From: Schmidtea nova
Lineage: Eukaryota
Reading direction: 5' to 3'
NCBI GenBank assembly: GCA_044892505.1
Contig: CM097882.1
Coordinates: 216,566,001-216,630,000 of the forward strand
Length of the DNA: 64,000 bases
The notes under the pieces: model-generated
What the model saw: the letters and a program-made list of their open reading frames with translations, nothing else
Databases searched by the model: none
What the model was told of the DNA's origin: nothing
Made by a program: the position numbers and the translations under genes
In this document: positions 36,135 through 63,167 of the stretch, in pieces
Numbering within the stretch: position 1 is the first letter of the stretch
Layout of the letters: each line of letters begins with the position of its first letter

Positions 36135-36138
<4 letters not shown>

Positions 36139-43700: not shown

Positions 43701-46700
43701 TATCTCTGGTGTTTCGATTATCACCCAATCTCCAACTTTTAAATCATGTGCTTTCACATTCTTTTTCTGATCATGCAGATCCTTGTAACTCTCTTGATAG
43801 AACTTGATGTTCAGTTCCGCCGTTTTCCAGATTTCTTGCATTCTTTCTTTGAACTTTGTAACGTAATCGTCAACCTTCATGTACTGTGATAATGGTGGTT
43901 GGTATTCTAAATCGATCGGTAAGTTGCAATCTCTTCCGTACATCAGTTGGAATGGACTTAGCTTTGTTGCCGCATGTATTGACATTCTGTATGCCATTAA
44001 ACACAAGTTGATATATTCGTCCCAGTCGGTTTGATGTTTGCTGACGTAATTCGACAACATACGTATCAATGTTCCATTGAATCTTTCTGTTTGTCCGTTC
44101 GTTTGTAGATGGTATGGGGATGTTCGTAATTTCGCAATTCTGAAGTAATTCGTAACTTCGTCCAATATTTCACTCATGAAATTCGTTCCTTGATCCGTTA
44201 GGATTTTCTTTGGTGTTCCGTATCTGCAGCATATCTCTTCCACCAATATTCTTGCGACTGTTTTCGCCTTTTGATCCGGTATTGCGAACGCTTCTGGGAA
44301 CTTTGTTAGATAGTCCGTGACTACTAATATATACTGATTCCCCTTTAAGCTTTCCGGCAATGGTCCAACTACGTCCATTGCTATCGTTGCCATCGGTTCT
44401 GCAGGTATTGGCATAGGTTTCAGTGGTGTTTTCCACTTTGTTCCGACGTTCTTTCTTGTCGCACAGGTTAAGCAGTTCTTTATCCATTCCTTCACATCAT
44501 CTTCCATGGTTGGCCAAAAATACTTTTGTCTCAATCTCCCGATTGTCTTTTTTGCTGACATATGTCCGCCTAATTTTCCGTCGTGATATTGAGTCATGAT
44601 TTCCTTTCGTCTATTCGCAGGTAAGCACATCAATCTCCGTTCTCCATCTTGTATCAATAACCATCCTTTTTCCATCACGTATCGGTGCTGATATTTTTGC
44701 ATATGTTCGCGCAACGTTTGGTTCTTGCCGAATATTTCTATTTCCCTTTCTTTCAAATACTTGCTGATCAATCCCAACTCCTCGTCTTCGAGTTGGTCTT
44801 TCCTTAATTCGCTGAAATCCAAATCCTCCGCTATTAATGCACATATTTTTAGAGCATTCAGGTTCACCAATTCTGGAAATGTAAACCTTGACATGCAATC
44901 TGCGTTTGCATTCGCTTTTCCTGCTTTAAACTTTATGAATGGCGAGTATTCTTGCAACTGCATCGCCCAACGCATCAATCTACTTGATGATTCTTTATGT
45001 TGACCTAACCATACCAATGGTTGATGATCCGTCGTGATATATATTTCATGACCCCACAATAGGTATTTGAAATGCTTGATTGCCAATATTATCGCATAGG
45101 CTTCTCTTTCCGTGACTGAGTAATTCCTTTCATGTTTCCTGAATGTTCGACTGTAGTACCCAATTACTCTTTCCTTGCCTTCTTCGTCAAATTGGCCTAG
45201 TACTGCTCCTGCTGCATATCCACTTGCGTATGTTGCCAACAGAAATGGCTTCTTAAAGTCTGGATGGACCAATATTGGTGCTGTAATCAGTTTGTCTCGT
45301 AATGTTTCAAATGCTGCTTGTTGTTCTTTTCCCCATATAAACGACACATCTTGTCTTACCAATTCTTGCATTGGCTTTGATATTCCTGCATAGTCCTTGA
45401 TAAACTTTCGATAATATCCACACAATCCCAAAAATTCTTGTATTTGAGTCACTGTTTTCGGTGGTGGACATTCTTTGACTTTTTCGATATTCCTTGGATC
45501 GGGTTCTTTTCCTTTTGCTGATACGATGTGACCTAAGAATGTCACTTTCTCTTTTGCCCAATCGCACTTTGACGGCTTCAGTTTCAGTTTCCACTGTCTC
45601 AATTTCACGAACACATTTCTGATGTCTTGTAAGTGATCTTCAAATGTTGCGGAGTAGATCAATAGATCGTCGATATACACCATGCATTGTTTTATGCCAT
45701 GTGTCACGAAATTCATGCATCTCTGGAATGATGCTGGCGCGTTTGTTAACCCAAACGGCATTTTCTTGAATTGGTACAGATCTCGTCCGATTGTAAATGC
45801 TGTCTTTTCTTTATCTTCGTCTTTCATTTTGATCTGCCAATATCCGCTTTTTAAATCCAGTGACGTGAAATAAGCTGCTCCTTGTAACGTCAATAACATT
45901 TCATTTATGTCTGGCAGTGGGTACGTATCTCTTTTCGTAACTGCGTTCAATCGTCTGTAATCGATACAGAATCTCTGAGTTCCATCCTTCTTTTTCACCA
46001 TCACCACTGGGAATTGCCAGGGTGAGCAACTAGGTTCGATGACCTCTGCATCTAACATCTTTTGTACCTCTTCTTCTGCCACTGCTTTTTGAGCTTCTGC
46101 CAGTTTATATGGTCTTAATGCGATTGGCGTTTCGTCCGTCAACGGTATCGTATGTAATGTTACGTCACATGTTCCTAAATCCAGATCTGATGCTGCGAAT
46201 ATATCTTTATATTCCATCAACAGTTTCTGTAACTGTTCTTTTTGTCGTTCGTCTAACAACACACTGTCAATTTTCCATGGTAATTCGTCTTTGCTTTTCT
46301 CGTTCTTGTCTGGTATTTCGATTTCGGACATGGGTGTCAATTTACCCAATCTTTCATTCTCGTATATTATCTTGTCCTCTTCGTCGAAGTTTACCAGATT
46401 AATCGGTATTTCTCCTTCTTGGTTTATCGTAACCAATTCTCTTGCCATTGGTAATTCTTTCTTTGCTTCGAACTTCTTACTGGGTTCGAATATCATATCT
46501 CCCTTTATTGTCGAATCGATCTTGACGTAGCACATCATTTCGTGTCTCGCTGGTACTACTATTTGTTCCGCACTTGCCACTTTAACTTTCATTCTGCAGA
46601 TTTTTCCTGTTCTATCTTTTAGTTTCATTGCTCCTAGATCAATTACGATTTCCTTGAACAGGTCTGGCATCAGGTCAGTTCCAATAATACATGGTACACT

Positions 46701-49700
46701 CAGCGATGGTATTACAGCGATGTACGTGTTGATTTCTGCACCTCGATGTTTAATTTTTACAAACCATCTTCCGGCTACTTCTACTGTCTCTTGACTGCAC
46801 GCGATTACATGTACATTCGTCTTCTCTATTTCTCCTTGGTTTTTCTCTGGTATATAGTTGATGTCGATCGCCGAAATATTCGCGCCTGTATCGATCATTG
46901 CTTCGATTTCTTTTCCGTTTATTTCTATGGTTGTTGTTAAAATCGGTCCCATATTTGTGGACATAACTGCTATCGTGTGCGTGTCTTCCAACGGGTCTAC
47001 ACTTTTGCATCGTTTTACTTTGCATCCTTCTGGAATTATCGGGTATATACTTGTCATCGGCATCATCTGCATTATATTCGGCTTCGCTTTGTATATCGGT
47101 TCGTTATACATTGACTGGGGTGGAGCACTGTATCTCCAATTCTCAACTGCACTCTTTTCGTTATACTGTGGAATCTGGTTTATATTCTCTTGTCCTCCTC
47201 GATCGTCATCGTCGTCATCATCATTGCTTGAGTCATCTTGCGTTCGATATCCTCTCACTCTTTCCCATAATCCTTTCCTTTCTTTCTTTAATTGTCTTCT
47301 TGCTTGTTCGTCTTGCATTATCTTTTTGAATTTCCTTCCAACATCTTCATTTGTTCCTTTCATTTTTGCGAGTATCTTCAACAATCTTTTTATTCGATGT
47401 ATGTCTTTTGAATGTCCGTGCAACACCATCGTTTTCGCAAGGAATGGTAAAAACCCTACTACCATCTTCCAATTCACTTTCTTTTCTCTTTTGTAGATAT
47501 CGAAACACGCTAACATTTGCGTTATTATCACTCTGACGATTTGTATTATCAATATAACACCCAGTATTCCAGCCATCATTTGTCCAAATATCAGGAATCT
47601 TCCCCACATTGCCTTCATCATATTTTCTGTGGCTTTCTTGAAATGTGCCGGTGACAACAGCAGTTCGTAATTTGGTCCTTCTCGATAATTCGTTCCTCCC
47701 GTTATCGTTACGATATTTGACAGTAATGCTTCTCTTCTTGCCGGGAATAGTATATTCTGCCTTGCTGCTTCTAAATCTTTTGGACTATAGATTCCGTTGT
47801 TTGAGACATCTACGTCGCTAAACTGTCTGTCCTTTGACAACTGCATTAGTTCAAATTCTCTTGGTGCTAATACTTCGGTTCTTCCTGGGAACATAACCCA
47901 TTTGCCATCTGGCTTCTGATAAAGCGGTCCGTACGCGTTACTACAGTTGAACGGATTTGGTTCAAACCCTGGTGGATTGATGATTCTCGTCACCGGTTGG
48001 ACGTATCGTACTTTTCCTTTATAATCGATTTCTAGTTCGTTTGTGCACTGTCCAGGTTTCAACTGCGTTGTTGCTGCTAGCGATGCGTGTGTCTTTTCGC
48101 AAATGTATACGTACATTGCCTCTCCAACCACTCTCCCGAAATGTCCTTCTCTCAGTGGTAATAACGGCATCGCGCTATCTGGGTTCGTAATCGCTACGGC
48201 CAACTTTGTCTTTAATATTTCCCGATTCAGTATACAATCGTTATTTATCAGATCGTAGTACACTTTTTGCAATGAGGCTTGTCCTCTATGGAATAAGAAA
48301 TCCATTTTATTATTCACGTACAAGTGTAGCTTGATATCCATTGTGTCGATCTTGGGTTTCGCATTCGGCACTTCTTGTTTCGACACGTATATTCCTGGAT
48401 AGTTTGTTTCGTATACCGTTGTACTGCACTTAAGGGTTGCTTTCCCTTTTATGAATCTCATTCCCACATCCTGATTTGTGGTTATCAACACTGTTGGTGT
48501 GGTTCTCATTTCTATCCGTTTCTCTCTATGATCCGGTTTCAATTGTCTTTTATTCTCTAAAGCTTCTTTGAGATGTTTTGCTCTAGCTTTGTCGTCATCG
48601 TCCTCTTCTTGGAACGTTTTTCCTTGGATTTCGTCGAACTTTGCTCCTTGTAGCAGTTGTAATTGACATTCGTTCACTTTCGGTTTGTATACCAATGTTG
48701 ACATTCCCGTTTGACACATACTCCTGTCGATTTTACACATGGATAACGTTTTCATTTCTCCGGTTGTCGGTTCGAAGAATGCTTCGTAGCTTTTCAGTTC
48801 GACTATGTACGTATCCATCACCACTAAGTTGGTTGCAGGTGCTCCGAATATTGGGTAGGTTTCTCCTTGACAATATCCTTCTCCTCCCGTAATCCGTCCT
48901 GCTACATAATACGTCTGCTGTAACATCATTCCTGGCTTTCCTTTTATCTTGATTTTATCTCTCGTTGTTACTTCTCCATGTTTAAATAATGCTTCGCAGT
49001 CTTCCCCTTGCAATACGATTGGTTCTCTTTCTGTTCCTGGCATGACAATTGCTGAATAATGTCCTCTCCCACAATAGAATGCGAATCTCGTCTTTTGTAC
49101 CTTGCATTCATTCACCATTGTCTTTATTAGTTCTGCCTCTTGATACACGTGATACCATTGTTCTTTTTTAATCTCTTTCAATTCTACTGGAGTTGCGTCT
49201 TTGCATTGCTCCGTACCTCTCAATGAGTACTTTTCTCCCAATTTCATTTGATCACAATCAAATACTTCGAACGTTGTTACACCTTCTGTGCTTAACAACC
49301 ATACTAGCATCATCATGATTATCGAGTTTAGATTCAACGTCGATCTTCCGTTTCCTTGCATCGTTTGTCTATTCTCCATTTCTCTCAATACTCCTTCGAG
49401 TTTCTTTCTCATCACGTTAGATCCTTCTTTTGTCTGGTTCTCTTTTATGAACTTTTCCCATCCTCCTTTTCTGAGGATATATGGTTCAATTTCCTTCTCG
49501 ATAACCATCGCCGTATTCTTAATATGTCTTCCCATCGGACTTGACTTCGGACTTCCTCGGCTTAGCGTTAGCAAATTGTATATCGTATACGAGATTGCTA
49601 CTAGATATTTGCTGTCCGTTTCTGCTCCGTTCAGTAGCCTTTTTATCAACATCGTGGTTCCTTGCCAATCTAGATGATTCGATTTTGTTTTTGCCTTTAT

Positions 49701-50204
49701 CAATTCCGGCATAATCGGTGCTATTGCATTATGTAGCATTTTTGCCTTTGTACTGGGTTCGTTTATCCGCCACAAATTCTTTAATTCTGGGTCAATTATC
49801 GCTAACACATCCATTATCGTTTTGGTGAGCCATTCTTCTCCTTGACAAACTTGATTCTCCTCTTTTCCTCTGATTTCTGCGATTTTGTCTAGTTTCTTCA
49901 AGCAAATCTCCCATTGCTCTTGTCTCCTTTCTTCTCTTGTCTTTGGAATTGTTGTTGCTGGATCTATCTTTGGTCTCCCTCTTGGTCGTTTTTCCATTCC
50001 AGTTCCGGTTTCTACAAATCTCGCTGCTCTTCCGGTTTCTTCTGTAACATCTCTTCCTTCGTTTGCTCGTTGTTCTAACCATCTTTCCATTTCTTGAGTA
50101 AACTGTGGTTGTTCTTGCTCGTCTTCTGATTCGTTTACCATTTCTATGACTACCTCCTGTTCCACTCCTTGATCGTCGATTTCTGCTGGTGACGTTATTG
50201 GCAT
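40665..50204 (-). CDS. pol: 3179-aa polyprotein: AT-hook, Bcl-2-like, Env, PR, RT, RNase H, IN, ankyrin repeats, signal + FN3-like module
   Basis: PR IDTGA; RT LDLKSGYWQ, PFGLTNAPASFQ, YIDD; RH TYASG...EAYAI...TDH; IN H-X6-H...CLTC, DVVG/DQG/ERFN, GPY; see the sub-features. Confidence 0.97.
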   Translation of the reverse strand: MPITSPAEIDDQGVEQEVVIEMVNESEDEQEQPQFTQEMERWLEQRANEGRDVTEETGRAARFVETGTGMEKRPRGRPKIDPATTIPKTREERRQEQWEICLKKLDKIAEIRGKEENQVCQGEEWLTKTIMDVLAIIDPELKNLWRINEPSTKAKMLHNAIAPIMPELIKAKTKSNHLDWQGTTMLIKRLLNGAETDSKYLVAISYTIYNLLTLSRGSPKSSPMGRHIKNTAMVIEKEIEPYILRKGGWEKFIKENQTKEGSNVMRKKLEGVLREMENRQTMQGNGRSTLNLNSIIMMMLVWLLSTEGVTTFEVFDCDQMKLGEKYSLRGTEQCKDATPVELKEIKKEQWYHVYQEAELIKTMVNECKVQKTRFAFYCGRGHYSAIVMPGTEREPIVLQGEDCEALFKHGEVTTRDKIKIKGKPGMMLQQTYYVAGRITGGEGYCQGETYPIFGAPATNLVVMDTYIVELKSYEAFFEPTTGEMKTLSMCKIDRSMCQTGMSTLVYKPKVNECQLQLLQGAKFDEIQGKTFQEEDDDDKARAKHLKEALENKRQLKPDHREKRIEMRTTPTVLITTNQDVGMRFIKGKATLKCSTTVYETNYPGIYVSKQEVPNAKPKIDTMDIKLHLYVNNKMDFLFHRGQASLQKVYYDLINNDCILNREILKTKLAVAITNPDSAMPLLPLREGHFGRVVGEAMYVYICEKTHASLAATTQLKPGQCTNELEIDYKGKVRYVQPVTRIINPPGFEPNPFNCSNAYGPLYQKPDGKWVMFPGRTEVLAPREFELMQLSKDRQFSDVDVSNNGIYSPKDLEAARQNILFPARREALLSNIVTITGGTNYREGPNYELLLSPAHFKKATENMMKAMWGRFLIFGQMMAGILGVILIIQIVRVIITQMLACFDIYKREKKVNWKMVVGFLPFLAKTMVLHGHSKDIHRIKRLLKILAKMKGTNEDVGRKFKKIMQDEQARRQLKKERKGLWERVRGYRTQDDSSNDDDDDDDRGGQENINQIPQYNEKSAVENWRYSAPPQSMYNEPIYKAKPNIMQMMPMTSIYPIIPEGCKVKRCKSVDPLEDTHTIAVMSTNMGPILTTTIEINGKEIEAMIDTGANISAIDINYIPEKNQGEIEKTNVHVIACSQETVEVAGRWFVKIKHRGAEINTYIAVIPSLSVPCIIGTDLMPDLFKEIVIDLGAMKLKDRTGKICRMKVKVASAEQIVVPARHEMMCYVKIDSTIKGDMIFEPSKKFEAKKELPMARELVTINQEGEIPINLVNFDEEDKIIYENERLGKLTPMSEIEIPDKNEKSKDELPWKIDSVLLDERQKEQLQKLLMEYKDIFAASDLDLGTCDVTLHTIPLTDETPIALRPYKLAEAQKAVAEEEVQKMLDAEVIEPSCSPWQFPVVMVKKKDGTQRFCIDYRRLNAVTKRDTYPLPDINEMLLTLQGAAYFTSLDLKSGYWQIKMKDEDKEKTAFTIGRDLYQFKKMPFGLTNAPASFQRCMNFVTHGIKQCMVYIDDLLIYSATFEDHLQDIRNVFVKLRQWKLKLKPSKCDWAKEKVTFLGHIVSAKGKEPDPRNIEKVKECPPPKTVTQIQEFLGLCGYYRKFIKDYAGISKPMQELVRQDVSFIWGKEQQAAFETLRDKLITAPILVHPDFKKPFLLATYASGYAAGAVLGQFDEEGKERVIGYYSRTFRKHERNYSVTEREAYAIILAIKHFKYLLWGHEIYITTDHQPLVWLGQHKESSSRLMRWAMQLQEYSPFIKFKAGKANANADCMSRFTFPELVNLNALKICALIAEDLDFSELRKDQLEDEELGLISKYLKEREIEIFGKNQTLREHMQKYQHRYVMEKGWLLIQDGERRLMCLPANRRKEIMTQYHDGKLGGHMSAKKTIGRLRQKYFWPTMEDDVKEWIKNCLTCATRKNVGTKWKTPLKPMPIPAEPMATIAMDVVGPLPESLKGNQYILVVTDYLTKFPEAFAIPDQKAKTVARILVEEICCRYGTPKKILTDQGTNFMSEILDEVTNYFRIAKLRTSPYHLQTNGQTERFNGTLIRMLSNYVSKHQTDWDEYINLCLMAYRMSIHAATKLSPFQLMYGRDCNLPIDLEYQPPLSQYMKVDDYVTKFKERMQEIWKTAELNIKFYQESYKDLHDQKKNVKAHDLKVGDWVIIETPEIIPGTVKKLQRPGKGPYEITTVNENNVRVRLVNNPLVRPIYVNACRCRKIPKTATLSPEKRVMTRSQTARINMLRVQQKPQTSLEDNRREAIDIKELAKKTREIIPEWKWWFDFSILSEVRKNVMEYAKDRTAHPITRTLLEEIPQTLNLQDKDGNTALHNAIKHGGNEKVKEIVEMILEGGGEIDKVNWEGITPLMMMTIHGRNDEIIKLFGNTRSNWMAKDKEGRTFLNHAIDRANHRILTYITENATWEIDELTRGPIMKQAIGVKNSKTWRILLKWKRPEGDSWVIDCNEVLIKGENALLKHLLEVTYDPKTLAVLIARDTLRVSENPREYKLDDRKKELFGLIKKWCDKQWNPDMSFEHFYDIQKQHKEISKRYKELVEALKYGQFFRQAVYQDQRMKQMQTRIRSKAVLFNAKADYHERLDVIVAKAQERLSEFKENKNSLEILGAITEKVHRYAQGDSNESDMETIKNQMPITFLLSKDGRLPIHWALRRKKENEVIEITKAMVKCEADMNTVDDNGDTIMIIAARKKTNFKVLSELYEAGAKIEGKNGKNNSIIDIAIQWNNFEMIKFMKSIKKQEDIGYLANNVKNFSLTVMIHDIEKTRALLTWVNPITKEPAFKINDHMEQNQNWCIRSALLRHKKPEIVEEFLKRRDLKLTNNPKEQERIGGWKDLFRKYVNEWANAKEAIKQSRLKDIEPSKDMEIREFESSTLAVQAYERLIEEINVEDDIFKGPGGGYRDFDDKSNNEENNEDNDNKRTEDNEKERQEEPKPTRNDKKGEAEERENRGTKDESTNYGKRTGSLLLRPEMLCIAILITIIGQGEAKKQYVTLEIIRGNEVYERICWKENLKKNDTLKCILSDLKRDVIQIKGLEKEKSYIICAIKQRGEPKAPQVTACQLYKATEALKIQKWIGKRSEETTRRTEVESEKGKNQSEAEEGIRNRTEKERITKNPAGKLTFQPELICVATRTDKQRMESKTTAIYSRTSKGTKENAMANTDDKWRNARH
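40960..41285 (-). other. Internal signal peptide plus one FN3-like Cys module at the polyprotein C-terminus
   Basis: EMLCIAILITIIGQGEA|KKQ then ICW...C...IQIKGLEKEKSYIICAI...C, matching the modules in 15750-17200. Confidence 0.6.
41960..43270 (-). other. Two ankyrin-repeat clusters (~42870-43270 and ~41960-42260) fused downstream of integrase
   Basis: QDKDGNTALHNAI, NWEGITPLMM, KDKEGRTFLNHAI, KDGRLPIHWAL, VDDNGDTIMIIAA, KNGKNNSIIDIA. Confidence 0.88.
43590..44640 (-). other. Integrase domain (HHCC, DD35E, GPY)
   Basis: YHDGKLGGH...CLTC; IAMDVVGP; ILTDQGTNF; GQTERFN; GPYEI. Confidence 0.95.
44880..46150 (-). other. Reverse transcriptase and RNase H (first catalytic Asp reads Tyr)
   Basis: RT motifs intact; RNase H FLLATYASGYAAGAVL with codon TAC at 45228-45230 where the family has TDAS. 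Confidence 0.95.
46600..46960 (-). other. Aspartic protease
   Basis: INGKEIEAMIDTGANISAI ... CIIGTDLM. Confidence 0.93.
47420..49340 (-). other. env: Envelope glycoprotein resembling chuvirus (Jingchuvirales) G
   Basis: Signal LNSIIMMMLVWLLSTEG; FEVFDC...YSL...C; C.LNREILKTKLAVA..NP; GEAMYVYIC; CTNELEI...VQPVTRI; GIYS..DL......ILFP; WGRFLIFGQMMAGILG + TM; REKR at 48516-48527. Confidence 0.8.
49437..49922 (-). other. Putative Bcl-2-like domain
   Basis: MLIKRLLNGAETDSKYLVAISYTIYNL (divergent BH1 position) and EIEPYILRKGGWEKF (BH2 WIxxxGGWxxF-like), with helical spacing typical of the fold. Confidence 0.6.
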
Positions 50205-50209
50205 CTCTA

Positions 50210-53011
50210 TTATTCTGTCAAAATATTCGCCGTTGGTTTTTGAGTCAACTTTGTTAATTCTTCTATCGCTTCATCACTGTCTGTTAGTATCTCATCGACG
50301 TCATACGCTTCTGGCGGTGTTCTCTCTCTTGTTTTTATTGGTGTTGTCCTTGCTTGTCCTGAACTTGTTCCTGGGATATTTGTTGACTTCGTCGGACTTG
50401 GTGTACTCATGCTTCCTTTCGCTTTCTTTTCCTCTTTAAACTTCAGTGGTTGACCCACTATTTGTGCCACTGTTAGCGTATTCATTAGATCCAATTGCAC
50501 TGGTGTCAGCCAGATTTCCAAATTGTTATCCAACGATCGTCCTTGATGTTGCAGGTGGAATGGTAGTTCGTACATCAGTTTCTCTTTAACACTTTTCACT
50601 TTTTCCGTTAGCATCACCCAAAACTCTTCTTTTCTCTGATTCGGATACATTATCCTCAAATGTATTTTCTGTGGCGTTTCCTCTGCAAACTCTTTGTTTC
50701 TCCACTTTTTTATTACATCGTCTAGTTGCTCCGGACACCACTCATTAACTCTCTTGTACTCTGCTATCGCTTTAGCTACTTTTCTCAAGTTCGTTATGTC
50801 TTCTCCATTTGAGATTATGAATTGTGCTAAGCCTTTTATTGTTTGTCTTTTTCCCCGAGTATTTCCTCTCAACAGCTCGATCAATTCACTCGTTTTCTGT
50901 TTCTCCAATTCTGCCCATATTACTGCAGTTTCTGGTCCGTCTAAGTCCGTTGGTAGTAACCTCCTTGTTACCATACATATCCGTTTCGTATTCCGTTCAT
51001 ATCTGTCTTCTTCTTCCGGATCTTCTTCATACACGCCTCTTTTCACTTTCCAACATTTCTCTTTGTTATCCCATTGCTTCTCTACTGGCGTCAATCGTCG
51101 TCTATTACGATCCAATTCTCCCAATATTGTCTCCCATTCTGGCTTCATCTGCCAGTTCCGATAGATTTCTACTATCTGCCTCAACTTGCGCATAACGTCC
51201 TCTTGTCGTTTCTTTCTTCTTTCCTCATCTCTTGGTGTTGCTCTTGGCACATCATCCATTCTGATGACATGTATTGTCTGATAATTATCCCATATGCCAA
51301 TTTTGTACGCTCGTCTCTCATCACGTTCGTTCAGTAGATGTTCTTTGTATTTTATCGCTATGTCATCCTCAAATTCGTCTTCCCGTTCTCGTTGCAATAT
51401 CGTCTCATTGATGACCTCTACTATTTCTCCCACTTTACTATCTGGTATTACTTCAATTTGTCTTGTCTCTTCGTTCGGTAATCTCACAGTAATCATCAGA
51501 TCTGATACCTCTCCTCTTTTAAACATTTCTTTTCCCATCTTTGCAATTAGCTTGTCTGTTTTGAAATTTGAATGTCTCGTTTGACTTGTATCTCGTATGT
51601 TTTCGATACACTGTTTCAAATTCTCATACTCGCTTTTTGTCAATTCCTTTCGATGTTTCTTGATTTGTTGGATGATCTGTTCTATCATCGTATTCAAATT
51701 CTCTGCCAAGATTCTTTCCTTTGCCTCCATCAACTGAGGTTTTATTCTCATCTCATAACACGTATTCGCTTCTCTGACGATTCCTTGTAGGTTCTCTTCC
51801 TTCTTGGTGTTGCATATAGATAGCGTTGTTATTTCTCCTGGCCATATGCCTGTGTCTATCATATGCGTTCCTTTTCTCACCAATCCGTTTTCCGAATATA
51901 TGAATTTGTCTTTGTACGAGCTTCCCAATCTGTCCTCAACCCATCTGTAAATTCCATCCGTCATTGGGTTCCTTATCCAGATTCTTGGTGAACACTCGTT
52001 TATCCATATTTGTATTACGTATTCGTTCAGTGGCTCTTTCAATAACTTCTCTATGAATTCTTGTATTACCCTCACTTCTCTTTCTTGTAACCACTCTTTA
52101 TACTTCGTCTGCCATACTGCTCGTATAAACTTTCTATATCGTTTCCCGTCGATAAACTCCTCGTTATGGATTACTTCCAACGCGTTATCCATCAGCTTCT
52201 GAATTTCCTCTTCCTTTACTGACATCGTTTCTATCGTCTCGACTACTTCCATCTTTTTATCCTCGTTTTCCGGTTCCTTTAGCATGTCTCCTGCCAGACT
52301 GCTAACTTCGCTGTCGTCTTCTTCATCTGACAACTCTTGTCTTGGGTGTCTCAGCATCCCAATATGCGCGGTTGGTCTCGCTTCGTTTTTGCTAACTTCT
52401 TGTATTAGTTCATTCTCGTTTCCCGTTATTTCAGCTTTTCCCATTCTCTTTTCCAACTCGTCTATTTCTTCCAGCCGTCTTCGTCTTATTTTTCCTTTAA
52501 ATATTCGACTGATCCGAGTTTGATGTTTTACTGGTGGGGGAATTTTCTCCGGTTCCACCTCTCTAATGATCATCACGTTTATTTTCGTCTCCGTTACTCC
52601 CATATCTTCCCATATATCAGTCATCTTCAACTTTACTTCTGGCAAATCCTCTGTTTGTAGGAATGCTTCTCTGGGCAGTTTCGTTACTCCCGGCATCATC
52701 TCATTTACTTTATTGAACAATCTTCCCACTTCTTCTTTTACATCGTGTTTGAATCGCCACACGTGATCATTCGGCATGATCACCAACATTCCTCTTTGTT
52801 TGATTCTCACTTCCTCTTCTTGATTCGTTTCTTTTTCTGTTTCTTTTTCTGTTTCTGTTTCTTTTTCTACTTCTTCCACTTTTTGATTCTGCTCTGTAGT
52901 TTCTACTTCCTGACTCACTTCTTCTTGTTTCTGCTCTTCGTTTCTTTTCTCTTTAACTTCTAACTCGTCTGGCTCATCCTGCTGCTTCTCTTCCATCATT
53001 GCTCGCATCAT
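50210..53011 (-). CDS. 933-aa post-Gag region with four ubiquitin-like domains
   Basis: Ubl-like segments at ~52562-52795, 51812-52021, 51260-51499 and 50462-50668 (e.g. MITVRLPNEETRQIEV; HLQHQGRSLDNN; THMIDTGIWPGEITTL). In frame with gag across TAG 53153; one base out of frame with the downstream ORF. Confidence 0.7.
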   Translation of the reverse strand: MMRAMMEEKQQDEPDELEVKEKRNEEQKQEEVSQEVETTEQNQKVEEVEKETETEKETEKETNQEEEVRIKQRGMLVIMPNDHVWRFKHDVKEEVGRLFNKVNEMMPGVTKLPREAFLQTEDLPEVKLKMTDIWEDMGVTETKINVMIIREVEPEKIPPPVKHQTRISRIFKGKIRRRRLEEIDELEKRMGKAEITGNENELIQEVSKNEARPTAHIGMLRHPRQELSDEEDDSEVSSLAGDMLKEPENEDKKMEVVETIETMSVKEEEIQKLMDNALEVIHNEEFIDGKRYRKFIRAVWQTKYKEWLQEREVRVIQEFIEKLLKEPLNEYVIQIWINECSPRIWIRNPMTDGIYRWVEDRLGSSYKDKFIYSENGLVRKGTHMIDTGIWPGEITTLSICNTKKEENLQGIVREANTCYEMRIKPQLMEAKERILAENLNTMIEQIIQQIKKHRKELTKSEYENLKQCIENIRDTSQTRHSNFKTDKLIAKMGKEMFKRGEVSDLMITVRLPNEETRQIEVIPDSKVGEIVEVINETILQREREDEFEDDIAIKYKEHLLNERDERRAYKIGIWDNYQTIHVIRMDDVPRATPRDEERRKKRQEDVMRKLRQIVEIYRNWQMKPEWETILGELDRNRRRLTPVEKQWDNKEKCWKVKRGVYEEDPEEEDRYERNTKRICMVTRRLLPTDLDGPETAVIWAELEKQKTSELIELLRGNTRGKRQTIKGLAQFIISNGEDITNLRKVAKAIAEYKRVNEWCPEQLDDVIKKWRNKEFAEETPQKIHLRIMYPNQRKEEFWVMLTEKVKSVKEKLMYELPFHLQHQGRSLDNNLEIWLTPVQLDLMNTLTVAQIVGQPLKFKEEKKAKGSMSTPSPTKSTNIPGTSSGQARTTPIKTRERTPPEAYDVDEILTDSDEAIEELTKLTQKPTANILTE

Positions 53012-53152
53012 GTTGATCCTTGGATTTCCTTTTTTTAACTGTTGTAATCGTTGTTGCCTGACTTGTTCTTCTTCTCGTCGTACTCTAGCCCATTCTTGAT
53101 TATGTTTCTGTTGACTCTCTCTATTCTCTCTTTCGGCCTCAGCTTCTATTAA

Positions 53153-54610
53153 CTAGATCATGTTTATCTTTGGTTGAGCAGCTTGCTGGCTTCCTTTTGC
53201 CATGCTTTCGATTATCTCGTGTAATCTGGATACCTCCTGTCTCAACTTAGCTTCTTTCATACTGGCTTCATTTGCACTGCTGTTTGGGTTATTCCGTTGT
53301 TGACCCTGATTCCCATAGCTGGGTCGATTCCCGTAATTCGGTCTATTTCCACTGTTTGACCAACTTCTCTGTTGATTACAGTCTCTTGACATGTGTCCGG
53401 TTTTTCCACATGTGTAACACGTTTTCCCATAACATCGATTTTCTGAGTGACCCTTTTGTGCACACAGTTTACAGGCTACATTCTGAAAACACTCTTGTTG
53501 CCAATGTCCGTTTTTCCCACACGTCTGACATTGCTTATTCTGCCTGTCATTGTAACTATTTCCTCCACTCGTGTTCACCGTGATATATCCGTTATTCTTC
53601 CTCGCTGGCGGTTCTTTGAATAGTCTCTGCGAATGGGGAATACTTTGATTCATGTTTCTTTTTCCTTGTTCTTCATCTTCTGTCGTTTTTCCCATCACCG
53701 CCGTAATTCTCATGTCGTTCATTGCCATATGCAATTCGAATAGGTTGGCTGCTTCCAACGCTTCATCTATTGTTTTACACCCTTTGCATCCTACTTGTGC
53801 TCTGATGTCAGGTCTCCTGAGACCTCGTACGAATAACGCTGTCATCAATTCCTCATCTACTGGACTTCCTCTGTTAAATGCCAGTTTCGCCAACTTTCTT
53901 AATTCACTTGCGTACACCGCATTTGACTCATTTCTCCTCTGTTTTCTTGCTGAGAACTCATCGAATGCTTCATTCAGCACTTTGTTTATCCCAAACGTCT
54001 GTTGGAAGAACTCCTTGATCGCTTCCCACGTTCTGGGTGGACTACTTCCAGATCTCTTTTCGATATACAGATCCAATGCGCTATCTTTCAAGTATAGCGG
54101 GATTCGATTTGCCAACGTTTCTGCACTCCATCCGCATATATCCACGAATATGCCAAATTCCTTTAGAAACGTGTCCAATCTACTGGCGTCTCCATTGAAT
54201 GGTTCGCCCTTGAATTTTTCTCTCAGATCCTCTCTGTGTTCACTCATCCCGATTCCACTATCTTGGAATACTGTACTAGTTTTCTTTGCTTCTAGTTCAC
54301 CTCTTGTTTCTGAATTCGACTCTTCTTCTTCACTACTCTCTGTTTCGTTATCTCTTGATTCGCTTCTTGTTCTGTTTTCCCTGACTAGTTCACTGTCTAT
54401 CGTCTCTACTTCGTTTTGAACTTCTAGATCTTCTGGGGTTTCTTCTTGGTTCTCTTTATTACTCGAATTATCGCTGATCTCTACTTGTTTGTTCTTTTGT
54501 TGCTTAGGCTTGTTACCTGTTCTTGTTCTTTTTGCTGCTTTTCTTTCGGCTTCCGTTAAGATTGGTATTATACCTGATCTTGTTTCTCGTCCCTCAATTT
54601 TGTCTATTCC
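53153..54610 (-). CDS. gag: Gag (capsid + three CCHC zinc knuckles); frame open to 54610 and continues past a TGA at 54611 to ~54745
   Basis: FNGD...FL..F...W...LYLKDSALDLY; MHR-like KQRRNESNAVYASELRKLA; CQTCGKNGHWQQEC, CKLCAQKGHSENRC, CYTCGKTGHMSRDC. Confidence 0.93.
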   Translation of the reverse strand, partial: GIDKIEGRETRSGIIPILTEAERKAAKRTRTGNKPKQQKNKQVEISDNSSNKENQEETPEDLEVQNEVETIDSELVRENRTRSESRDNETESSEEEESNSETRGELEAKKTSTVFQDSGIGMSEHREDLREKFKGEPFNGDASRLDTFLKEFGIFVDICGWSAETLANRIPLYLKDSALDLYIEKRSGSSPPRTWEAIKEFFQQTFGINKVLNEAFDEFSARKQRRNESNAVYASELRKLAKLAFNRGSPVDEELMTALFVRGLRRPDIRAQVGCKGCKTIDEALEAANLFELHMAMNDMRITAVMGKTTEDEEQGKRNMNQSIPHSQRLFKEPPARKNNGYITVNTSGGNSYNDRQNKQCQTCGKNGHWQQECFQNVACKLCAQKGHSENRCYGKTCYTCGKTGHMSRDCNQQRSWSNSGNRPNYGNRPSYGNQGQQRNNPNSSANEASMKEAKLRQEVSRLHEIIESMAKGSQQAAQPKINMI

Positions 54611-55123
54611 TCAATTTCTTATATTCTCAACTGATTTTCTACTCCGCTTTTGCTTTGCTTCTTCTTTGATTTGTTTCCTTTGACTGCTCTGACTGCTAGA
54701 TTGCTTTGAATTGCTTGATTGATTTGTTTCCTTAAAACAAATAATCACTTACACGATACGTCCCCGTTATCGTGTTTCTCGTCCCTCTCACGGGTGTAGT
54801 CATAATTCATGAAGATCCCCATTTTTCCCATTTCCCTTGATTTTAAGTCTATTTAAATTATCTATGCAGTCGTATTAATTATCTATTCTTTATCAAATAC
54901 ACCAATTACTTTTCCCCAGTTCCCCAATTACTTTGTCGCTCAGCGCTCTTATTATTCCCTTTACTTTTCTCAGGCTTCTCTGGCTCTGAGTTCAAATTTC
55001 CCCTTATCTATCGATTACTCTGTTTCTCAACTATTCGCTTTATTTCCTATTCATACTGCGTTTACTACTTCATTTCAATTCTCATCTCTACTCACCTTTA
55101 ATTCCACTGACATCTCTCGTTGG

Positions 55124-55505
55124 CCTGTTGGGCTTTCCAATCAGCGCCTTTAATCTCACTTTTTTATCTCGAACTTTGTTACTCTCAACTTCACTCATTA
55201 TCTCATTAGCCTGCTGGGTTTTCCAGTCAGCGCTTTTATGATCCTCCATTTACCTCTTTGCTGTCGACTTCTAACTGCTCTTTACTCCGATGATCATCAC
55301 TTTTGACCTGCTGGGTCTTCCAGTCAGCGTCCTCAATTTCACTCCTTTATTATTACTCACTTTTATTCTCTTGATCTTTCCTGATCGTCATCATTGACCT
55401 GCTGGGTTTTCCAGCTAGCGTCTTTACCACTTTACCTGTCTTAACAAACCGGTTTCCTTTTATTCCCATCGAATCTCCTGGTCTGCTGGGTTTTCCAGTC
55501 AGCAC
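55124..55505 (-). promoter_or_regulatory. Five conserved 24-nt stem-loop motifs spaced 84-97 nt apart in the 5' leader (candidate packaging/translation signal)
   Basis: cctgctgggttttccagtcagcg-like copies start at 55124, 55210, 55307, 55398 and 55482; ctg-ctgg/ccag-t-cag stem. Confidence 0.55.
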
Positions 55506-55825
55506 CTTTACTTACTCACTTTACTTTACTACTCCTCTGTATGCATACTTTCACCTCATTAGGCCACATAATCAGCTTTACTCGCATTTATCAATACCTA
55601 GGTGCGCACCTTCAACTCTCTCGTTATTAATTCGGTTTCTTTCAACCCTTATTCCTCATTATTCGCTATTCATTTTCACTATTCATCATTTATCCTCATT
55701 ATCACTTATTCATCTCCATTATCGCTTATGGATCTTCACTATCCGGATAGTTTTATACTTTATTTAGTCCTCATCTGCCTCACTTCGTCGTCTTTCTCGT
55801 GGGCTTTTACTCGATATTTTATTTC

Positions 55826-56440
55826 GAACGAGAACTATGCTCACCGTTGAGAACTATGCTCACTAACGAGAACTATGCTCAATGACGAGAACTATGCTCA
55901 CTAACGAGAACTATGCTCACTGACGAGAACTATGCTCAATGACGAGAACTATGCTCACTGACGAGAACTATGCTCACTGACGAGAACTATGTTCTCTGAC
56001 GAGAACTATGCTCACTGACGAGAACTATGCTCACTGGCAAAACATGGTTGTTATGAGGGTTTTGCTTACTGATGGAAACTCTTTGCTCCGGGGACTATGT
56101 TCCCCGATGAGAACTATGCTCACTGATGGTGACTACAGGAATTATGTTTCCTGATGAGAACTACGCTCACTACGATGACTATGTTTATTGATGAGAACTA
56201 CGCTCACTGATGAGGACTATGTTCGCTGGTCTTGTGTTTATTAATGAGAACTCTGCTCACTACGAGATTTATATTTACGGACGAGAACTATGCTCACTAT
56301 GATGTTGTGTTTTATGACGAGACCTACGCTCACTAGGATGTTATTTTTATGACGAGACCTATGCTCACTATGAGACCTATGCTGACTAGGATGTTATTTT
56401 TATGACGAGACCTATGCTCACTATGAGACCTATGCTCACG
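55826..56440. repeat. 19-bp tandem minisatellite (acgagaactatgctcactg) in the leader, degenerating rightwards
   Basis: About 11 near-perfect head-to-tail copies to ~56037, then degenerate copies. Confidence 0.9.
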
Positions 56441-57138: not shown

Positions 57139-57597
57139 TTACAAGTACACTGCTATTTTCTCGGATACGGGAAGGTTGCACATAGGACATCGTTCATTTA
57201 TTTTACATTCATTACAGAATCGGAAATGCCCACATGGCAACAACATTATCTGTATCTTATTCATTTCACAGATATAACACGTCAGATATTGTCTCGTATG
57301 TTCTGTTGTTATTCTTATCCACTCATCGTGTTTTGTTGTTAACTGTTGTTCTAGCCTGTGGCACTCGATATTCATCTCAGGGTTGTTTAATCTTTCTCTG
57401 TACCATTGATATCGTGTTGCTGTATCCACTGTGTTCTTATTCTCACTTAAGCTCATCATCCTTTCGGCTCTTTCTGTGTTGTTTGTCGGTTCGTGATATT
57501 CTCCTACCTCGAGTCGTTTTAACTTTCTCGTTATTGTCTCCACTGTCTCGTTGTTTGTTTCGAAAAACGTTTGCATTTCTTTTATTTTGTTCTCCAT
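57139..57597 (-). CDS. 152-aa protein with a C-terminal IAP/MDM2-type RING (no BIR), in the element leader
   Basis: CYICEMNKIQIMLLPCGHFRFCNECKINERCPMCNLPVSEKIAVYL-stop. Confidence 0.85.
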   Translation of the reverse strand: MENKIKEMQTFFETNNETVETITRKLKRLEVGEYHEPTNNTERAERMMSLSENKNTVDTATRYQWYRERLNNPEMNIECHRLEQQLTTKHDEWIRITTEHTRQYLTCYICEMNKIQIMLLPCGHFRFCNECKINERCPMCNLPVSEKIAVYL

Positions 57598-58118
57598 CCC
57601 CTGAATGAATTCTCATTAATTTTGTTATCGATTTTTATTTATTATTTATCATTCCTATTCTATGGTAGCCCTACTGTTCGCTTTCTGTTGTTCTGTTTTA
57701 CGTCGTTACTTGCGTATCCCCCCGTGTTCTTGAATGTCGCCCCGACATGATCATTGCTAGTTGCTCACACTCATAACATTTTCATGCGTTCTTTTCATCA
57801 TACTTTTACGTCATGCATACTTTTCATCACTTTTCATACTGTCACTCCACATACTATTCATCCTGCTTCATTCATCCTCATATTTCCACATTCATACTTT
57901 CGTTCTCATGCATACTTTTATCATGCTCATCATTCTCATTATTTTACACTCATACTTTTATTTATTATTTTTCAACCCGATTCATTCTTGCTTCAGGACC
58001 CTCAAACCCTCTATTATTTACTTTACTTTTCCTCGCTAAATTCAATTCCATCCCGGTTCATGCGCTCTAACACTGTCCGCAGATATCGAATTCACTTTTT
58101 CCCACAAAGATCGATTTA

Positions 58119-58136: not shown

Positions 58137-58142
58137 ATTTTA

Positions 58143-61100
58143 TGCTGGTGTGTTGGTTAGATTGACAACTGAGATCCTTATGATTTTATACGTTAGGGTG
58201 ATCTCGCCAACATAAAGATATTCCCCCCGCTGACACCCATGATGTATCCCTAACTACTCATCATGTTGGTGCTGTGTCAACGTTGTGAAATGACAAGGCA
58301 GGTGAGCAACCTTACGGCTACTATTCCCTTGTTTATTCACGGGTCCACCACTACCGATAAAAGGTGTCTGTGGCTTTCTTTCGGTCCCACTTATGCTCTT
58401 TCCTTTGCTCTAGGGTAATTTAATCTTAGCGCATCTGCTGTGCTTCATGAATCCGGGCTTTAGTTTTATTCAATTCTCAGACATTCCACAAACAAACAAG
58501 ACAAGTCAACTCATTCATTTTATACATTTATTTATAGTTTAACAATACAGAGGGTCTAATTACATTTAGTAGTTCTTGCTCGGAGAGACCACTGAGCAAG
58601 TCTACCTCTATTCCTACGCGATCTGCATATGCGCGTCTCTCCCTACGTTTTTTCGCTCCCAAGCGATTCCTTCGTTTGGTCCTCTGCGACCCTCGTGGTA
58701 TGGTCGTGGTCATCTCGGTTGCCGTGGTTACGGTTATCTCTTAGTCGGTTTGCGTACTCGTCGTTGCTGATGTCGGAGTTAACCATTTGTTGAAGGTACT
58801 CGTTCTAATCACTGGACGCAATTGCTCAACGATGAAATCCTGGGTCGACACCTTTAAATAATTGGCCAACTCTAACTTCAGGGCTGCGACCTCCCTCGCT
58901 TGTTCATCGATCGTTCGCTCCGCTCTGTATCGGGCCTGTAAGATGGCTTTAACACTCTCAGGATTAAACCACGTTGCCTTAATCCGCTGGTGCTCCTCGT
59001 TCAGTTGTCTCAAGCGACTCTCGAGGACACGAGATCGTGCTCTATGTTCGCGTGCCTCTTGCTTGTACTTTCGAGTGGGATTTTCGTCCATATCTGAGTA
59101 ATATATCATTAACCAGGGTATGTATGCATTGTTGGGTTTCTCAGTCCCTATTTTATTGTTAAACAACTGCACCCTCATCCTTACTCATTCCACATACATC
59201 CAAAACCAAAACAAAACCCTTTTAAATGGATACATATATTTTTAATTCACAACAGATGGTCGCACATTGGAGTGTCGTCCTCGTGATCAATTGTATGGTC
59301 GTAACTCTTGATCGGCCGGGTTCTCGTCTCGGCGAATTCCTGTTTCATGGTATAGTTCGGGGGCTGGATTCCAACTCAGTTTGTTTTGATAAATGAACAC
59401 CTCCCAGAGGCGAAGGTCTTCGGGCTCGGGGTGTTGATCCACGGAAACACTGCCTGGGGCGTTCGGGTAAACGAAGACTTCCCCAGTGTCACCACACCGA
59501 GGCCTGTCTAGCAGCAAATACCCGAGTTGACCGAATGCCTGCCCGGTCATCATTCCGGCGCTGAGTACCCAGCGGGGTTGTTGTGTTTCATCTACAAATT
59601 GATAGAACCATCTTTCGTATCCATCTTTGGTGGGGTTCGGGGAGGGCGTCCATTCGACATCGCCTTCCCACCTCAGCTGTAGTTGGAACGCACAGGCGGG
59701 AATACTTGCCGCTGTGCTCATATGGGTCCTTGTCCATCGACGCAGGTGTCTACGTGCGGAGTTGAAAATTTGTCGTGGGGCCTCCTTCTCTCCTTGGATC
59801 TCAGTAGGTAATTTTGGGGTGATGACGGAGCGGATGCGCCGTTTCCTCCGTAGAATGTACTCCTCTAATTTGACGGTTAGGGGTCCTACCGGCTCCTTCA
59901 TGAGATATTCTGTTTTCATCATGTTGCTCTGAAATGGAATTTTAGGTTAACTGACAGACTCTATCATCGACCATCGATATTTATGTCGATCAACCTACTT
60001 GGTTTATCGTTCTATTAGCCGTAGGCCTTAGTAGCTCGCATATAATTTACTAGACCGTTGGTCGCGATGTTCATGTAGGTGGTGACTTTACTTAGGTGAG
60101 TTGATTCACTCCGCAATTACAGACGGTTTTAGCTACGCAAATTTTGGCTTGTTATTTACAATCAATTTATGTTACATTTAATTTTTCACCGATCCTTTTC
60201 ATTCACTCAACATAGTTCATTTACAGATCATCATCGGCAACTATCAAGGTTCTCGTCACGGGGAAAATTTAGTCATCCCTTAGTCAACTGCTTTATTGAG
60301 GAACACACTAATTTTATCTACTATCGGGTCTGACTTTTCATGCCCTTAGTGGGTTATATGTATATATCTGGCAGCTCATTCGATTCACTACTGCCCCTTG
60401 GTGTTAATGTCTTTCGACCGCGATGTTACGTTTTGTCTATCTCGATTCTCATCGACTTTTGATGTACTAGCACTCCTTGAAGGCATACCCCTTCATCAAG
60501 GTACCTCATGCATATATCTCCCCTTGCGAAATGAACTTTACCTTGCGTTGATTTATGGTCATTAACTGTCACTCGATATCCCGTCATCGTGAAGTATAGC
60601 GTTTATATTAGGCCGTCGCTACCTTGATTTAGTTCATGATCATTAGGTATTACTCGATACCCTATGTGCATCTAATCCCCTCCGCTTACCAAATATTTAG
60701 TAAACTTATGGTCCCGCCGCATCAGTACCTCATAACCGATAAGGTGTGTTGCGCTGAGAGGCCCCGAGAATCCGTCAGGCTGTTAGGCCTCCGGAAAACC
60801 TTATGGATTTTAATATGATTGTAAACAATTATGAGGGTTTAAATAATTAACAATAAAACTCAACCATACTTGTATTTGGCTTCCAATCGGTTTTACAATG
60901 TCTTCCGTAAAAGTGACTGTTGTACTGATTTACCTTCAGTAAAAATGACATTGTCAAATACTGATTTGACTTCAGTATTTATACTCAACCGGTGTTGTTG
61001 GTTAGCCAATCAGCATCGAGTATGTGTGTATGTTTGCTTCATTATTTTTTGTTGCCGGCTTTTTGGTGCCTAACTCAACTCAATGATTTATTTGGTTAAT

Positions 61101-61379
61101 CATGCGGTAAGTTTATTTTTTGTATGATTTAATTTTTATTTGATTTTGTTTTAACTCTTCGGTGACATCCGCCCACGCGCTGTCATATTCCGATTTTATT
61201 TGCTTCGCATGAGTGAGTTATGAAGATTTTTGTTGTTTTTATTAATACTCCATTTCTTTTAGATGTTGCCGCCTATTTTATTACACTTTGGTGTTGGTAA
61301 TTTATTTTGTTGTTATTCTGTTGTAAATTTATTTTATTGATTGTATATTATTTTTAGATGCTGCTCGATTTGGCTGGCC

Positions 61380-61384
<5 letters not shown>
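58143..61384 (-). repeat. 5' LTR (3242 bp), containing the same ORFs as the 3' LTR
   Basis: Direct repeat of 36138-39379; adjacent PBS. Confidence 0.95.

Positions 61385-61430
<46 letters not shown>
61385..61430. repeat. (TA)n tract, right flank of the LTR element; another (TA)n at 61669-61718
   Basis: Perfect dinucleotide runs. Confidence 0.97.
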
Positions 61431-61434
<4 letters not shown>

Positions 61435-61666
61435 TATCAATAATTCCCATAATGGATGACTATAGATCAAAATTTCTTTAAATAAGTACACAATACTTCG
61501 GCACAGCCTTTATCAAGTGTGTATCTAATAAATATACACTTGATAAAGGCTGTGCCGAAATATTGTGTACTTATTTAAAGAAATTTTGATCTATAATCAT
61601 CCATTATGGGAATTATTGATATTAATAATAAAAAAAGATCAAAGGTGAAACAAAAAGATAATTATG

Positions 61667-61668
<2 letters not shown>
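61430..61668. mobile_element. Palindromic fold-back/MITE family, copy 2 (~95-bp arms), between two (TA)n tracts
   Basis: attaatatcaataattcccataatggatgac...gcacagcctttatcaagtgt / acacttgataaaggctgtgc...catccattatgggaattattgatattaat. Confidence 0.85.
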
Positions 61669-61719
<51 letters not shown>

Positions 61720-62910
61720 CTTATATATTTTTTTCAAGACAACAATAAACAGCACAATTAAGCATTATTTTCAATAAAATAACCTTACAAAAATTCAAGA
61801 AGCAATTTTAAGAAGCAATTATACAATTTGATTCAATGATTTATTTGCTTTCTTCAAACATGAATAATAGAATTTATTTTTTATGGGAAGTTAATCCTAA
61901 ATAAGACCATTACAAACTGTATTTGAATATTCGAATGCGTTTGCAAATATGAAAAGTAATTTTTGACTCGAATCGCTCCATTTTCACTCTGAATCACTTT
62001 TATTCATATCAGAGCCGAATCAAATATTTTCATATTCTTCCATTTGACAAACAATATAAATTTTAAGTATTCTTCCGCCCCTTTACATATGACGGCAATT
62101 TTAATTTCCTACTGAAATGATTAATGTCTTCAATAATATTTTAATTGATTAATTAGTTTGTCATTTTCAATTTAATTTGTCTAAAAATTCTCCATCAAAT
62201 CATTATTATTACATTTAATTGAAATTTTTTGTTTGTCATCGGTTTTGCCCTTTTTCCCATGAAATTATTGTATTTTCGATTTTTCATTCTCAAATCTTGT
62301 ATTAATTTTTTGCTCTCTAAAAAATTTCTTTTTGAATGCAAATTAGTTTTTAATATTTATTATGACTTTCATTAGAATATTTTGTGTATTTAAATTTTAT
62401 TTGCACTCATTTGCATAACCCTACATAAAACAATAAATTTATGCCATTTTAAAAATGAGTGGGGTGATTATAAGAATGTATGTAACTATTTAAAATTATT
62501 TTGATATATATTATAACACTTTCTCGTGTTGAAACTTTTGAATTTGACATTGTAAGAACGAATAAAACATCTAAGAAAAATTCTGTTTAAAAAGATTTCT
62601 TTATTCAAAAAATTAAGAAAATAATTTTGAAAATAAAAATACCCATCAAATGCTAATTCTGTTAATTTCTTAATTCCTGAATGTTCAAATACAACTTCTT
62701 GATCAGCTTCAGGTTCGAAGCACACATTGAAATAAAAGGTTTTATTTGAATTTTGAGAAACAATCNNNNNNNNNNNNNNNNNNNNNNNNNNNNNNNNNNN
62801 NNNNNNNNNNNNNNNNNNNNNNNNNNNNNNNNNNNNNNNNNNNNNNNNNNNNNNNNNNNNNNNNNNNNNNNNNNNNNNNNNNNNNNNNNNNNNNNNNNNN
62901 NNNNNNNNAC

Positions 62911-63110
62911 CTTTGATCTTTTTTTATTATCAATATCAATAATTCCCATAATGGATGACTATAGATAAAAATTTCTTTAAAAAAGTACACGATGTTTCGG
63001 CACAGCCTTTATCAAGTGTGTATTTGATAAAGGCTGTGCCGAAACATCGTGTACTTTTTTAAAGAAATTTTGATCTATAGTCATCCATTATGGGAATTAT
63101 TGATATTAAT
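62911..63110. mobile_element. Palindromic fold-back/MITE family, copy 3
   Basis: Same arms with a shortened loop; begins at the gap edge. Confidence 0.85.
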
Positions 63111-63167
63111 TATTATTATTATTTTAATTATTATTATTAAATAATTAATAAATAATAAAATAATAAA

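Follow-up and report, generated by a model that had tools for sequence, protein, structure and literature searches.

Burro/GYPSM1 elements are giant Gypsy-like retroelements of planarians, which according to a 2019 review (PMC6431247) encode one polyprotein of about 5,000 amino acids (aa). It comprises Gag, a Ubi2/SUMO-like (PF11976) motif placed before BCL-2, a mononegavirus-like Env that lies in frame between gag and pol, and the order protease, reverse transcriptase, RNase H and integrase (PR-RT-RH-IN), and the elements further carry ankyrins as well as TRAF/MATH, RING and BIR cargo. The same review called for tests of the ubiquitin-related cargo. The locus considered here lies within 64,000 nucleotides of the Schmidtea nova genome (GCA_044892505.1, contig CM097882.1, positions 216,566,001 to 216,630,000 of the forward strand), a stretch referred to below as the window. 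Judged by this described architecture, the window element is a Burro-type Gypsy retroelement. An initial reading of the bare sequence, the original prediction, reported four dispersed ubiquitin-like (Ubl) domains between Gag and Env but overlooked both the type of the element and the Ubl motif already published at this place. As set out below, the region likely contains a repeating unit of a helical domain followed by a Ubl domain, of which distant Burro families carry one or two and the window element three, in addition to one further Ubl-like segment.

The Four Segments and Their Conservation

All four segments were found where they had been predicted, in a single 980-aa frame on the minus strand (50213-53152), which is located between the Gag frame and a frame of 3,201 aa; the features ascribed to the element in the following are likewise on the minus strand. 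D1 (52559-52801) is a weakly supported Ubl-like segment without an upstream helical partner, D2 (51803-52033) is likewise a weakly supported Ubl-like segment, D3 (51251-51502) is a moderately supported Ubl-like segment, and D4 (50450-50671) is a well-supported Ubl/SUMO-like domain. D2, D3 and D4 are preceded by the helical modules H2 (52034-52219), H3 (51509-51799) and H4 (50687-50899), respectively. The placement between Gag and Env is correct, although a Bcl-2-like segment sits between D4 and Env.

The sequence patterns first taken as signs of a beta-grasp are met only loosely: the strict start pattern occurs in D3 only, the strict middle pattern in D4 only, and the strict end pattern in none of the segments. 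Relaxed versions, which were fitted post hoc, each match three of the four segments and nothing in the other 3,686 aa, a count reached by none of 2,000 shuffles. The predicted lack of a di-glycine end proved right for the entire 980-aa frame, from which Gly-Gly is absent; the L095 span has none either, and the L031 span has two, both outside the domains. Since a domain devoid of Gly-Gly is neither conjugatable nor a cut site for deubiquitinases, D1-D4 cannot be conjugated or serve as such sites.

Among 22 close copies, whose pairs are not independent, the ratio of nonsynonymous to synonymous differences (pN/pS) amounts to 0.12 in D1, 0.08 in D2 and 0.05 in both D3 and D4, and to 0.35 and 0.25 in the outer linkers; for the helical modules H2 and H3, values of 0.13 and 0.06 were obtained. 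Compared with ten loci of two sister subfamilies, D1-D4 retain 62-75% identity, with pN of 0.13-0.20 and pS of 0.48-0.69. All four segments are under purifying selection.

Indirect Evidence for a Ubiquitin/SUMO Fold

The fold assignment depends on intermediates. Distant Burro families, which were reached by a genome search with the Env and Bcl-2 families, contain helix+Ubl units between nucleocapsid and Bcl-2, namely two in L079/L082 and one in L085, and each of their Ubl-like domains is preceded by a helical stretch of about 80 aa. A PDB search with a profile of these distant units matched ubiquitin (E 3e-4) as well as ISG15 (E 0.01), and a pooled profile to which a Gag-less derivative of the element (see below) had been added matched ISG15/ubiquitin at E 3e-4. 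The window units in turn align by hhalign with the distant-unit profile in the expected register (D2 unit E 0.049, D3 unit E 0.015, D4 unit E 0.018), at scores that none of 15 shuffles reached. With the derivative added, H4-D4 (profile A10) reached E 5.5e-4 against the distant units, above all 15 shuffles, and H3-D3 reached E 7e-4 over 76 columns against the pooled profile, again above all 15 shuffles but narrowly so (28.2 versus a best shuffle of 26.8). Global alignments give z values of 3.7 between ubiquitin and the distant domains, 3.6 between these and D4, 2.4 between these and D2, 3.2 between D1 and D3, and values near 0 for helical controls. PF11976 was matched by related domains at E 0.004-0.023 (15-17.5 bits, below the Pfam cut-off of 23.8 bits) and not by the window segments themselves. 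Genome searches with PF11976, PF00789 and PF21403 returned other elements and host genes (11 of 20 and 4 of 12 loci inspected).

The four segments differ in how far this chain extends to them, and the indirect evidence suggests the order D4, D3 and then D1 and D2 about level, in keeping with the expectation that the third and fourth domains would score best. H4-D4 (window residues 750-926) is 35% identical (E 5e-30) to part of a 1,045-aa open reading frame (ORF) of a derivative copy (L119), whose domain matches PF11976 at E 0.016; by transitive homology, D4 very probably adopts the ubiquitin/SUMO beta-grasp fold. For D3, which scores 0.89 in the Atlas against a ubiquitin/Rad60 cluster and whose sister copy matches OTU1_UBXL at E 0.016, the fold is judged probable. 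Hence, the claim of a non-conjugatable Ubl type is firm for D4 and holds moderately for D3, while for D1 and D2 it is weak.

These two segments are the subject of an alternative that confines the ubiquitin-like character to D3 and D4, takes D1 and D2 for conserved alpha/beta domains with a different fold, and considers a count of four too high. In favour of it, D1 reached significance in none of the hhalign tests, the alignment of D2 (E 0.049) spans only 24 columns, and all Atlas scores stay below 0.9; moreover, D2 showed no significance against profiles A10 or A11. On the other hand, D2 attains mean z values of 2.4 to the distant Ubls and 2.1 to D4, and D1 is tied to D3 by a mean z of 3.2 (maximum 6.5); each of the two also lists an unnamed Atlas cluster of 74 aa and two Rad60-SLD-bearing clusters, with the same sizes for both segments. 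D1 also lists Rad60-SLD clusters at 0.84-0.86 (0.86 at rank 15), and FERM_N was matched at E 0.13 in a sister copy. In addition, in 34 of 36 rows (ranks 15-50), the low-confidence model of D1, built from an alignment without a known Ubl, is aligned along entire beta-grasp chains (Z 3.1-3.5, root-mean-square deviation about 3, 53-72 residues), a weak-Z comparison that amounts to a re-ranking of Foldseek's picks. Taken together, D1 is a probable paralogue of D3 and reasonably likely to share the beta-grasp, the evidence for D2 leans the same way with slightly less force, and an overcount appears unlikely at about one chance in four.

Direct tests lent no clear support to the assignment of a Ubl fold to the window segments. 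No Ubl family was matched in Pfam by any window segment alone, and PDB searches with a family-only profile of each segment yielded no Ubl; among the PDB matches of profiles A1, A4-A7, A10, A12 and A14, neither a Ubl nor a TFIIS N-terminal domain (TND) attained significance, and A10 matched best the 41-residue peptide PD6 (E 0.019). A combined D1+D2+D3 profile retrieved from the PDB only a proteasome subunit (E 0.003) and a redesigned ubiquitin (E 0.9). Two AlphaFold runs reached a mean predicted local distance difference test score of 32.8 with a family-only alignment and 39.4 after addition of the distant units, the second alignment being partly hypothesis-led and itself not significant; the proposed check by structure prediction thus neither confirmed nor refuted a beta-grasp. 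Foldseek searches with the AlphaFold models gave nothing at E 0.001 or better, and in a wide VIA structure search with the second model only helices were matched. Residues 110-910 (near and longer lengths) found no relatives in large protein collections, nor did profile A1 among 1.84 billion representatives or the distant-unit alignment A2 in large protein collections. D3 reaches only z 0.6-1.5 to other Ubl groups, and the tandem D2-D3 is not significant against the two-unit family, since 3 and 5 of 25 shuffles reach its score. Lastly, the helical parts and the D1 linker are also under selection, so that selection indicates function and not fold.

The Probable Helical Partner Domain

The helices between the segments, first regarded as charged separators, are likely to be a conserved partner domain where they precede D2-D4. 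H2 is predicted to be helical in the AlphaFold models; the end of H3 aligns with a helix-end motif of the distant Burro units, and H4 is retained together with D4 in the derivative. A BAG1-like order, in which a Ubl is followed by a helical bundle, was considered and rejected, as the helices lie upstream in the single-unit families.

A faint TND likeness is seen in register in the helical partner, with hhalign E values of 0.018-0.046 to host TNDs that were picked as targets by eye; none of 20 shuffles reached the score for A11 and A12, and 2 of 20 did so for A10. Among the PDB matches and the listed Pfam matches of the helical partner profiles, no TND (PF08711) was present. According to PMC9987994, TNDs read acidic motifs present in elongation factors, and lentiviral integrases hijack these domains. 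This weak likeness and the lentiviral precedent form the basis of a reading in which the helix+Ubl unit would be a fusion of a TFIIS-N-terminal-like and a SUMO-like domain. As a retroelement chromatin adaptor, it would grip elongation factors and decoy the SUMO machinery of silencing guided by PIWI-interacting RNAs, having been amplified up to fourfold in autonomous Burros and kept by the Gag-less derivative to protect its own thousands of copies. We regard this as a long shot. Separately, a tandem array of about 28 PF08711 matches, spaced by about 1.2 kb, was observed about 310 kb before the window (G000:C1:216191207-216252340).

A Gag-Less Derivative and Putative Processing

A search for BIR domains uncovered a high-copy derivative of about 25 kb with 3.8-kb long terminal repeats (LTRs) that are 99.8% alike (G000:C1:350785689-350810602; L118, L119 and L106), which has 2,982 first-look candidates, 150 of them scored. 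In each of four copies compared, no match to Gag, reverse transcriptase, integrase, Env or Bcl-2 was detected. The derivative retains an H4-D4-like unit, in open frames of mostly about 1,045-1,053 aa, together with the protease, ankyrins, the leader RING, TRAF, BIR-RING and further ORFs. Its helix+Ubl unit adjoins the protease, and a protease-site-like word lies between the D4-like domain and the protease.

Similar words occur in the window element before D1 (53006-53020; in 10 of 10 long sister frames), between D1 and H2 (52352-52366) and between D3 and H4 (50969-50983), the latter two each in 10 of 10 sister frames. Cleavage by the element protease at these three words would release D1, H2-D2-H3-D3 and H4-D4, the last of which may remain attached to the Bcl-2-like segment.

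Possible Functions

The explanation favoured here regards the segments as diverged, non-conjugatable binding modules of ubiquitin/SUMO fold, with an upstream helical domain as the probable partner of three. Instead of serving particle assembly, they would be adaptors or decoys aimed at the ubiquitin/SUMO-dependent signalling of the host in death and immunity, alongside the RING, TRAF, IAP, Bcl-2 and ankyrin cargo. Their partners may be E2/E3 enzymes or signalling proteins bound through surfaces other than the Ile44 patch, and internal duplication may have expanded an array of initially one or two units to four. A host-directed role is favoured because the derivative, in which no Gag, reverse transcriptase, integrase or Env was matched, keeps the unit together with RING, TRAF and IAP genes, and because Burro1 B-IAP is reported to guard stem cells from apoptosis (PMC13465017, citing Lee et al. 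2026). As for the partnership with the leader RING that the original prediction suggested as a possibility, the derivative has kept both parts. It counts against this role that the argument proceeds from co-retention and neighbouring cargo, and as a whole the explanation is given about an even chance. A scan for SUMO-interacting motifs, considered as a further candidate, returned none in the window Ubl region and none conserved across subfamilies, and the candidate was rejected.

Alternatively, the modules may serve replication of the element itself by tethering or chaperoning its ribonucleoprotein or by regulating its protease. Precedents are the coronavirus nsp3 Ubl1, which acts on the nucleocapsid, and the Ubl of Ddi1, which sits beside its retropepsin. 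Such a role would accord with the position of the modules in frame with Gag and Pol, by which they are co-made, and with H4-D4 adjoining the protease in the derivative. It is at odds with the retention of the unit in open frames by a derivative that lacks matches to Gag, reverse transcriptase, integrase and Env, even though this derivative could act in trans on a helper element, with the variation in unit number from one to four among families, and with the protease-site-like word that parts D4 from the protease in the derivative. A replicative function is therefore considered improbable, about one chance in five. Still more doubtful is a function as proteasome-shuttle or UBX-type p97 adaptors, which would send bound host proteins for degradation. 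The start of D3 and of D4 does resemble UBX/UBXL domains (E 0.014 and 0.065 by hhalign against host UBX; OTU1_UBXL E 0.016), and D2 keeps the equivalent of Ile44. However, a helical control reached E 0.049 against the same UBX set. The p97-binding motif of UBX domains is Arg...Phe-Pro-Arg; the Phe-Pro-Arg loop motif is missing from D1-D4, and the sister subfamilies do not conserve the UBX-like Arg seen in D3. Of the genome's 28 PF00789 matches, none falls at a place listed for this family, and PF00789 was matched by no segment. Proteasome-binding Ubl domains of the Rad23/Dsk2 type, for their part, are marked by a hydrophobic Ile44-type patch. In a low-identity alignment, to which D1 could not be added, the equivalent position is occupied by Lys/Gln (D3), Gln/Lys (D4) and, in the distant families, Lys/Arg/Tyr, D2 alone having Ile. 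Since it is polar in D3 and D4, binding to proteasome receptors is unlikely as a shared job, and the proteasome-adaptor idea of the original prediction is weakened accordingly.

If the favoured host-directed explanation is true and the unit targets host SUMO/ubiquitin signalling, it would constitute a transposon-encoded counter-defence module. The helix+Ubl unit, with its borders, likely cleavage products and a natural one-unit minimal version, offers small domains for expression, structure determination and pull-downs.

The Element That Carries the Region

The window element spans 25.3 kb (36134-61385) between a 5' LTR (58139-61385) and a 3' LTR (36134-39380), each 3,247 bp long and 99.88% identical to the other, with (TA)n at both outer flanks; these dimensions agree with those of giant LTR elements (about 25-30 kb with multi-kb LTRs). 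A leader RING ORF (57142-57612; PF13920 E 3e-9), which has homologues in the sister subfamilies and in the Gag-less derivative, precedes Gag (53156-54610), whose capsid and CCHC knuckles match PF03732 (E 2e-5) and PF00098 (E 5e-10). Downstream of the 980-aa frame, the 3,201-aa frame accounts for the rest of the polyprotein (40668-50270): by Pfam, an Env of the Monjiviricetes fusion type (PF24664 E 3e-71) is followed by RVP, RVT_1, RNase H, rve and Ank, which is the Gypsy order PR-RT-RH-IN with Env in frame between gag and pol. The Bcl-2-like segment (49455-49712) ranked first among 99 frames with a profile of distant Burro Bcl-2 segments, at a weak E value of 0.013; it has no Pfam listing in the window copy, and distant Burro families match PF00452 at E 7e-7 to 0.012. 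Among the Pfam matches of the window element, there was no dUTPase.

In the window copy, the polyprotein is broken twice, by a stop that closes the Gag frame (53153-53155) and by a frame change near 50210-50270. In many copies, the region from Gag onward forms one frame of about 5,080-5,090 aa. Of 150 matches that were scored among 837 candidates in the genome, 27 have open frames of 5,076-5,147 aa by hand count, and the 3,330 bases retrieved for each of 29 close loci are open throughout in 22. Two runs of unspecified kind cover the stretch as contigs only, which is uninformative on expression. Relative to another copy, about 4 kb are absent from the window copy near 40790. At this point (40789-40791), comparison with L115:2264-6328 shows that the missing part includes the end of the polyprotein together with a TRAF gene of 476 aa (RING-zinc finger-MATH). 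TRAF is a separate downstream ORF in the family of the window element, deleted from the window copy, and the described MATH/TRAF, BIR and RING cargo is distributed over a RING in the window, a TRAF ORF in the sister copy L115 and a BIR-RING in the derivative.

In the sister subfamily L095-L102, frames extend up to about 5,685 aa; the N-terminal part of Env is 97-98% identical to that of the window, whereas the region from Gag to Bcl-2 is only about 60% identical, which suggests recombination or an exchange of Env between subfamilies. The window further contains a second Burro-like element fragment (15139-19278, plus strand) with an ORF resembling a polyprotein end and a truncated TRAF ORF (zf-TRAF E 1e-6), as well as an AT-rich satellite at 1-15023 (period about 380-390 bp, GC content about 18%). 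In the leader that separates gag from the RING ORF, there are a 19-bp tandem array and repeats spaced by about 90 bp (55790-56424 and 55108-55510). Two long palindromic units that are nearly perfect (61429-63143) lie immediately beyond the 5' LTR and are probably a repeat resembling miniature inverted-repeat transposable elements.

Comparison with Known Systems

The ubiquitin insertions of pestiviruses and the Ubl1/Ubl2 domains of coronavirus nsp3, which the original prediction had invoked, are analogous in that Ubl folds would reside inside a viral or virus-like polyprotein. Pestivirus inserts are near-intact cellular sequences that act as processing signals and need Gly-Gly, which is absent from the window segments; homology to nsp3 was not seen in PDB searches. 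D3 and D4 weakly resemble UBX and OTU1-UBXL domains in the two initial strands and the helix, at scores under thresholds and devoid of the p97-binding loop motif.

A contrasting Gly-Gly fusion exists in the same genome. PF11976 gave 2,223 candidates, and a high-copy element of BEL/Pao type (L047-L058, e.g. L049:1501-2400, plus strand) was observed in which a near-canonical, mostly Gly-Gly-ended ubiquitin is fused in frame to a DUF1759 Gag and is preceded by apparent Hsp70 and glutathione-reductase fragments, as read by eye. It probably represents a fusion of ubiquitin and Gag that host deubiquitinases cleave.

Rad60, Esc2 and NIP45 offer a close cellular parallel, since their SUMO-like domains are internal, tandem, non-conjugatable Ubl binding modules and PF11976 is the best Ubl family match of the related Burro domains. 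The Burro domains differ from them in remaining below the Pfam cut-off, as given above, and in having a helical partner. Among retroelements, the comparison returns to Burro/GYPSM1 itself. A description of several Ubl copies or of a helical partner was not encountered in the literature searched, although the figure of PMC6431247, supplements, Lee et al. 2026, Grohme et al. 2018 and Jurka 2007 may hold one. Nothing on these domains was met in PMC11410931 or PMC8532177. The review (PMC6431247) mentions the Ubl motif once and gives neither a number nor a partner for it. The region described here has up to four diverged copies with a recurring helical partner; the number of units ranges from one to four among families, and a Gag-less derivative has kept the unit. 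In summary, both this class of element and a Ubl motif in this position had been published before, and new here are the number of modules and their pairing with a helical domain; the finding refines the published motif of the Burro elements and opens no new class.

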